64,000 nucleotides of DNA from Escherichia phage MiataMamis. Shown here in pieces: positions 24,728 to 25,045 of this stretch. The stretch lies in the sequence record PP925834.1; one strand, given 5' to 3'. The position numbers and the translations under genes were made by a program. Numbering within the stretch: position 1 is the first letter of the stretch; each line of letters opens with the position of its first letter. The notes beneath the pieces were generated by a model, which had not been told where the DNA came from, did not search any database, and worked only from the letters and a program-made list of their open reading frames with translations.

Positions 24728-25045
24728 ATGCAAATTGAAATCACTGGCAACGTAGAAATCACTGAAGGTATGGTGTCTTTCATTTCCCACAAAATGTCTA
24801 AGCTGGAGCGTTTGCACCCCTCTGCCAACTATGCACGTGTGAGTGTAAAAGTTGAAAATGATCACCAGGAAGTCATGGCGTTCATTTTTGACACTTCCGG
24901 AAAAGAAGTTATTGCCAAAGCTAAAGGCAGTAACGCTTACGAGGCAACTGACCGTATGGTAGATGTTGCAGCACGTCAGTTGGCTAAATGCGGTGGAAAG
25001 AAAGGTAAAGGAAAAGGCAAAGTAAAGATTGACTTTGGAGAATGA
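24728..25045 (+). CDS. hpf: ribosome hibernation promoting factor / RaiA-family protein
   Basis: MQIEITGNVEITEGM...KLERL...VSVKVEN...NAYEATDRMVDVAARQLAK aligns with E. coli HPF; own promoter at 24652-24680. Confidence 0.85.
   Translation: MQIEITGNVEITEGMVSFISHKMSKLERLHPSANYARVSVKVENDHQEVMAFIFDTSGKEVIAKAKGSNAYEATDRMVDVAARQLAKCGGKKGKGKGKVKIDFGE

Follow-up and report, generated by a model that had tools for sequence, protein, structure and literature searches.

What does a phage gain from carrying its own copy of a ribosome hibernation factor, and does that copy still act on ribosomes as its cellular relatives do? The question is raised by an hpf-like gene at positions 24728–25045 (+ strand; ATG start, 105 aa plus stop) of Escherichia phage MiataMamis, an ortholog of ORF144 of phage rV5, within the 64,000-nucleotide stretch of record PP925834.1 that was analyzed as a whole and is called the window here. 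An earlier note, made from the letters alone, had read this open reading frame as an HPF/RaiA homolog with its own promoter and a lysine/glycine-rich tail, had suggested that its product could dimerize or stall host ribosomes, and had named an HMM search and a structure prediction among the possible checks. The open reading frame is present in the window, and its translation matches the one quoted in that note.

Family assignment and distribution of the phage gene

The HMM search bears out the family assignment. The Pfam profile PF02482 (Ribosomal_S30AE) matches residues 3–88 of the 105-aa protein with 46.4 bits (E 7e-12; cut-off 23.7), and TIGR00741, which represents the HPF/YfiA family, scores 45.1 bits, also above its curated cut-off of 40.9. 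In a phmmer search against PDB sequences, the best matches were E. coli HPF chains (2rql, 4v8h and 6h4n; E ~4e-11), with residues 1–89 aligned on residues 1–89, while among phage protein families PHROG 12469 matches with an E-value of 5.6e-70. The equivalog profiles of NCBIfam draw a finer distinction: NF007780, for the enterobacterial short HPF, gives 53.2 bits, below its cut-off of 125, and NF007654, for RaiA/YfiA, gives only 16.3 bits against a cut-off of 158. Because the first score lies under its cut-off and the second is lower still, we regard the protein as a diverged family member with an HPF-like rather than a RaiA-like core. The full-length alignment to HPF/YfiA claimed in the note thus holds for HPF over residues 1–89, whereas the likeness to YfiA/RaiA is much weaker, with ~22% identity to E. 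coli YfiA and 20–25% to enterobacterial RaiA proteins. With 105 aa, a single Pfam domain and residues 91–105 predicted to be disordered, the phage protein lacks the C-terminal dimerization domain of the long, Gram-positive type of HPF.

Upstream of the gene lies a predicted sigma70-type promoter at 24652–24680 (+ strand), equivalent to P144 of phage rV5, in which a −35 hexamer TTGACA (24652–24657) and a −10 hexamer TATCAT (24675–24680) are separated by a 17-nt spacer and together match the consensus at 11 of 12 positions. This is the promoter that the note had described; its −35 hexamer is the same in all 11 relatives aligned, even in the lineage with a protein of just 63% identity, and its −10 hexamer is TATCAT in all Vequintavirus relatives save one (TATTAT). 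The 105-aa protein is, in sum, a phage-encoded homolog of the HPF/YfiA family with its own sigma70-type promoter. Neither the gene nor the promoter is a discovery, since the rV5 GenBank record (DQ832317) annotates them as ORF144, "sigma 54 modulation factor", and as "Sigma70-type promoter; P144", and since the protein was tested by Mizuno et al. 2019 (Nat Commun, PMC6375957), who listed ABI79209 and its orthologs among virus-encoded ribosomal proteins. The rV5 genome paper had also described a block of 88 mainly small ORFs with predicted sigma70 promoters (PMC3606486). ABI79209, gp144 of Escherichia phage rV5, is an ortholog of the same length (105 aa) and 98% identity, with position, promoter P144 and neighbors in common; only two substitutions, N56T and D69N, set the two apart.

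The window belongs to an rV5-like Vequintavirus. Its hpf region is 96–99% identical to that of ~118 Vequintavirus (rV5-like) records, ECML-10 being the closest (99.1%), and tblastn with the protein (E <= 1e-3) was positive for those ~118 records and for no other group of phages. A single-protein scan of viral contigs recovered two IMG/VR loci only, both rV5-like. PF02482 proteins are also known from other phages, namely Cronobacter phage GAP32, PHROG 8990 and the metagenomic viruses whose HPFs Mizuno et al. 2019 described, yet these form a separate, distant clade, and PHROG 8990 matches the window protein at an E-value of 1.9e-5 only; judged by this sequence distance, the HPF genes of the rV5 group and of other phages are probably independent acquisitions.

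Annotation across these records is uneven. Elsewhere the gene is called hpf, RaiA or ribosome hibernation factor, several records mislabel it "ATP-dependent protease La type I", and two phages, nomo and APCEc02, have "sigma 54 modulation factor" as the name of the adjacent 89-aa ORF, the homolog of ORF146. Eighteen entries labeled "Campylobacter phage" (MG0656xx) are ~97% identical to this E. coli Vequintavirus; MG065646.1, the sole one opened, is flagged UNVERIFIED.

Predicted fold, ribosome contacts and divergence

The structure prediction agrees with the profile searches. An AlphaFold2 model built on a 51-sequence family alignment (mean pLDDT 82) contains a folded HPF/YfiA-type domain at aa 1–88 (24728–24991, + strand) with a predicted beta-alpha-beta-beta-beta-alpha topology, its strands at residues 2–7, 33–43, 46–55 and 60–67 and its helices at 13–29 and 70–92. 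In a Foldseek comparison of this model with the PDB, the best match was V. cholerae HPF (4hei; target-normalized TM 0.93, rmsd 1.0 Å), followed by E. coli HPF in the 100S ribosome (6h4n_x; TM 0.90), with superposition rmsd values of 1.0–1.1 Å for both HPFs; the top 37 PDB matches are all chains of HPF, RaiA, pY or other ribosome hibernation factors. The phage protein is accordingly predicted to have the HPF/YfiA fold.

Conserved ribosome contacts of the cellular factors were defined in a 2025 preprint about hibernating ribosomes from Gram-negative pathogens (bioRxiv 10.1101/2025.10.07.680626). According to that work, HPF and YfiA have the basic contacts K80, R83, K87 and K91 in common, with K89 in addition; T53 and H/V62 contact m2G966, H55 and E60 contact the uS9 C-terminus, and K26 and Q29 lie near m3U1498. 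According to our alignment, the phage protein retains R83, K87, K91, K25 (equivalent to K26) and E60, carries a compatible I62, and has R28 at the Q29 position. The contacts lost, with the residue of the homolog from the second phage lineage (P0004, described below) in parentheses, are K80, replaced by V (T); K89, replaced by G (S); T53, replaced by F52 (R); and H55, replaced by D55. K80 is lysine in 98% of 48 cellular members, and the beta-sheet contact motif of HPF (T53 and H55) is gone from the phage protein, while the E60 position is valine in P0004. Neither phage lineage has kept the near-invariant contacts K80, K89, T53 and H55, so that weaker, salt-labile binding to the 30S subunit is to be expected, and 30S binding is probably retained in an altered, weaker form. 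Such altered contacts, combined with the retention of R83, K87 and K91, supply a concrete reason why the published pull-down discussed below could be negative.

The closest cellular point of comparison is the short HPF of E. coli (YhbH; PDB 2rql, 6h4n and 6y69), which has the same fold and is ~39–40% identical over residues 1–89. Both proteins are short and without a dimerization domain, and they share R83, K87, K91, K26 and E60. They differ in the four replaced contacts (K80, K89, T53 and H55), in changes at M70, L77 and L81, and in one deletion in the beta1–alpha1 loop and one insertion in beta3 of the phage protein. The C-termini differ as well: a Lys/Gly tail of 16–17 residues stands in the phage protein where E. 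coli HPF has DKLKQH, and the whole-protein pI is 9.0 for the phage protein as against 6.5. Unlike the host HPF, the rV5 protein had no effect on 100S particles when expressed (PMC6375957).

The Lys/Gly-rich tail noted earlier is indeed present, as the segment GGKKGKGKGKVKIDFGE at aa 89–105 (24992–25042, + strand), which is predicted to be disordered (pLDDT <50 for residues 91–105) and has a pI of 10.0 against 6.3 for the near-neutral core. Its basic character recurs in both phage lineages, but its sequence is not conserved, the divergent lineage having KYSKSKGIDKRTAKWDY. The coding DNA of the tail is a low-complexity run of AAAGG-like repeats, and tail variants (L007, L008, L010 and L011) are found among the relatives: single-base indels alter the C-terminus in APCEc02 and Murica, YN3 is two codons shorter, and D1 ends in FWD. 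Since isolates with frameshifted or shortened tails exist, either the exact end of the tail seems dispensable or these records carry homopolymer errors. Some relatives, in addition, restore an extra Asn of GNNVEIT and thereby reach 106 aa.

E. coli RaiA/YfiA (protein Y), of the same family, offers a parallel for the tail, because it too has a C-terminal extension past helix 2. The RaiA extension blocks RMF and favors inactive 70S ribosomes over 100S dimers; a phage protein that has a tail and leaves 100S levels unraised may be analogous. The two tails nevertheless show no similarity to each other, that of RaiA being longer with an acidic end and that of the phage protein Lys/Gly-rich. By the same analogy, and as speculation, the phage tail could reach toward the RMF site.

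A word-indexed homolog search with the single protein found five close relatives only, and an exhaustive phmmer search of 1.84 billion representatives yielded 12 proteins at E <= 1e-3, of which the closest from cellular organisms are short HPFs of the enterobacterial type, at ~40% identity. A second phage lineage is represented by P0004, a 103-aa protein of 63% identity encoded in a syntenic block on contigs of 125–137 kb. One candidate from the exhaustive search was rejected: P0006, a 1160-aa tandem-repeat protein with an E-value of 1e-14, is most likely a repeat-inflated false positive rather than a homolog, because it matches only query residues 35–81, nine times in tandem.

Over codons 1–87, comparison with nine Vequintavirus orthologs gave dN/dS values of 0.04–0.17 with dS up to 0.68, and the phage gene is under strong purifying selection; no dN/dS is given between the two phage lineages because dS is saturated there. 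Across the 48 cellular members, 42 alignment columns reach a conservation of at least 75%; the phage protein matches 22 of them, and most replacements are common to both phage lineages (G14, F18, I19, R37, V40, V49, A70, E72, T74, M77 and A81). The gene thus looks like a short, gammaproteobacterial-type HPF that was captured long ago and has since diverged stably and under selection. It does not resemble the product of the "relatively recent" transfer that had been suggested in 2019 (PMC6375957).

Candidate roles at the host ribosome

The one direct experiment on this protein was reported by Mizuno et al. (PMC6375957), who used pBAD24 to express the rV5 protein in E. coli NM522, grew the cells to late exponential phase and prepared ribosomes through a 500 mM NH4Cl cushion. 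Peptides of the protein were undetected in 70S or 100S fractions, yet present in the crude extract, and expression had no discernible effect on 100S; as possible reasons for the negative outcome the authors gave growth phase, genuine loss of binding, and stripping by salt, and they suggested that a viral HPF might compete with the host factor and so prevent dimerization (PMC6375957). The idea of the earlier note that the phage copy dimerizes or stalls host ribosomes is consequently left unsupported, the protein having been absent from salt-washed 70S and 100S particles and 100S having been unchanged, under high-salt conditions and in phage-free cells (PMC6375957). A failure to co-sediment with ribosomes was the outcome that the note itself had named as speaking against its idea; because of the 500 mM NH4Cl wash and the use of late-exponential cells without phage, this negative is not decisive. 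Washes in 500 mM NH4Cl also strip cellular hibernation factors. A literature search, with most subscription journals outside its scope, found no later functional work on HPFs of Vequintavirus or other phages, nor any Vequintavirus transcriptomes, expression timing or deletion phenotype.

The reading that we favor, with confidence evenly divided for and against it, is that the phage protein sits weakly and reversibly at the HPF site of idle ribosomes, competing with host factors and not promoting 100S formation. Unmodified host RNA polymerase would transcribe the gene, probably early, and the product would dock on the 30S subunit where cellular HPF and RaiA do, in the channel for tRNA and mRNA, through R83, K87 and K91 of helix 2. 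The disordered basic tail may add non-specific contacts to rRNA, a role that is pure inference. The protein would then compete with host HPF, RaiA and RMF for idle ribosomes, so that vacant 70S particles might be kept or protected for the phage rather than driven into 100S dimers. The published result would accord with weak or salt-labile binding, because the protein was present in the crude extract and missing from ribosomes washed in 500 mM NH4Cl, and 100S was not raised. Against this reading, the sole experiment failed to find the protein on 70S or 100S particles, with genuine loss of binding among the explanations listed by its authors; moreover, only 22 of 42 conserved columns are kept, and K80, one of the four universal basic contacts, is gone.

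A related but rather doubtful reading takes the competition further and regards the protein as a remodeled anti-hibernation or ribosome-protection factor turned against the host program. The changed 30S interface, without K80, K89, T53 and H55, and the acquired basic tail would make it a fast-exchanging competitor that would displace or exclude host HPF, RaiA and RMF, or would shield the decoding center from host nucleases or toxins that target ribosomes. Were it true, the ribosomes of slow-growing or stationary hosts would stay available for phage translation. Silencing, protection and anti-hibernation are all candidate net effects of the phage HPF. More generally, phage copies of ribosome-associated proteins bear on how host translation is taken over or preserved and on replication in dormant cells, and the group concerned here includes widely used E. 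coli phages (rV5 and the Vequintaviruses of the BASEL collection), some of them candidates for therapy or biocontrol. To this the present analysis adds that the clade is old and diverged and under strong purifying selection, that its contact residues can be divided into those kept and those lost, and that its tail is prone to indels.

The idea of the note corresponds to a canonical hibernation or shut-off factor that would bind as tightly as host HPF and, with RMF, drive 100S formation or otherwise stall ribosomes so as to turn off host translation, and this we consider unlikely. The fold is that of short HPF, the core is nearest to short HPF, R83, K87 and K91 are retained, and the strong sigma70 promoter suggests expression before host takeover, all of which speak for such a factor. 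The published experiment found neither recovery with 70S or 100S nor a discernible effect on 100S (PMC6375957), however, K80 and the T53/H55 motif are replaced, and the score on the HPF equivalog is 53 bits, far under the cut-off of 125. A blocker of the A and P sites would, in addition, inhibit phage translation equally, and no mechanism of selectivity is evident.

Also improbable, in our judgment, is a repurposed fold that has given up ribosome binding and uses the HPF scaffold and basic tail for another RNA, for a host protein, or as a decoy in the HPF/RaiA system. The negative ribosome association (PMC6375957) speaks in its favor, and roughly every second column conserved in the family carries a replacement fixed in both phage lineages, which together with purifying selection fits a new, stable function; the recovery of so few proteins from 1.84 billion representatives (12 at E <= 1e-3) likewise marks the clade as far diverged. 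What argues against it is that the residues retained are exactly the basic helix-2 contacts to 16S rRNA, that the negative test was made in the salt that removes cellular hibernation factors too, and that the gene neighborhood, whose members are without known function, suggests no other partner.

That the gene might be a decaying, functionless passenger of host origin, kept by chance, is very improbable, although it sits in a block of small accessory ORFs and some isolates have frameshifted tails: the dN/dS of 0.04–0.17, at dS values up to 0.68, effectively refutes it, and the frame is intact in ~118 records and in the syntenic 63% lineage, the promoter is conserved and the fold prediction is confident. 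The label "sigma-54 modulation protein" goes back to the location of hpf within the rpoN operon. Regulation of RpoN-dependent host transcription, which that label would imply and which only its historical use in many GenBank records favors, can be set aside with near certainty, since all structural work places the family on the ribosome.

Transcription signals and gene neighborhood

The promoter of the hpf-like gene is one of many in the window. Sigma70 sites matching at least 11 of 12 consensus positions number 18, as against 1.6 +/- 1.3 in Markov-1 random sequence (~11-fold enrichment), whereas a loose scan of a 7-kb region gave 18 sites against 14.0 +/- 3.9 and hence no enrichment. The strand of the near-consensus sites follows gene orientation apart from a single outlier: of the nine on the + strand, eight fall within the first ~30.7 kb and the outlier sits at 44.2 kb, and the nine on the − strand all occur farther along, starting at ~33.5 kb. 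This distribution fits transcription of both divergent small-gene arms by host RNA polymerase, and from gene layout and promoter type the hpf-like gene is probably expressed early.

Between promoter and gene, a 7-bp stem-loop (AAGAGGG/CCCTCTT; 24689–24709, + strand) appears in the RNA fold of 24681–24760 at the predicted 5' end of the transcript, and a Shine–Dalgarno-like AAGGA at 24716–24720 (+ strand), conserved in Vequintavirus relatives, precedes the ATG by 7 nt. Vequintavirus relatives retain the stem-loop, in one case imperfectly, and the divergent lineage L002 lacks it; it is a weak and optional candidate for stabilizing the 5' end of the RNA. A role of the hairpin in regulation or termination was rejected, because its fold is no better than that of shuffled sequences (z = -0.33), the terminator scan leaves it uncalled, and L002 does not have it. 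Searches of the whole window gave no Rfam match and no tRNA.

Another promoter-like sequence (TTGACT-16-TACAAT, with a TG preceding the −10; 25029–25056) overlaps the last hpf codons, and its −10 element overlaps the ATG of ORF145. It is conserved in relatives, with TATAAT in one, and might drive the next gene at 25183. ORF145 of rV5 corresponds to a 33-aa hydrophobic ORF at 25055–25156 (+ strand), which begins 9 nt 3' of the hpf stop and matches PHROG 15151 (E 3.7e-26). Annotated in rV5 and absent from L002, it is possibly co-transcribed with hpf and so a tentative member of the unit.

Around these two genes extends a block of small ORFs in which the PHROG matches of the neighbors are all to families of unknown function, and a scan of the neighboring ORFs for RMF or other translation-related domains gave no Pfam matches. 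Paralogs of PHROG 5009 flank hpf at 23458–23682 and 23672–23926, with weaker relatives at 19798–20031, 25548–25811 and 25816–26148, and members of PHROG 7379 occur at 23939–24337 and 26148–26543; these paralogous small-ORF families, spread over 19798–26543, therefore suggest tandem duplication of accessory-gene modules.

Farther downstream, where promoter and gene orientation switch, an interval of ~2.4 kb (30700–33100) contains no ORF of at least 90 aa on either strand, with GC content falling to 0.34, and it matches the "non-coding" box of rV5 at 104013–106618. By its sequence features it may be a replication origin or a regulatory region. Its direct repeats comprise short iterated ones, with three copies of the TATTCACGCT type (32026–32093) and three of the ACTGTTTACGC type, and an exact 20-nt repeat at 32170 and 32401; it also holds a perfect 18-nt inverted repeat, formed by 32236–32253 with 32370–32387.
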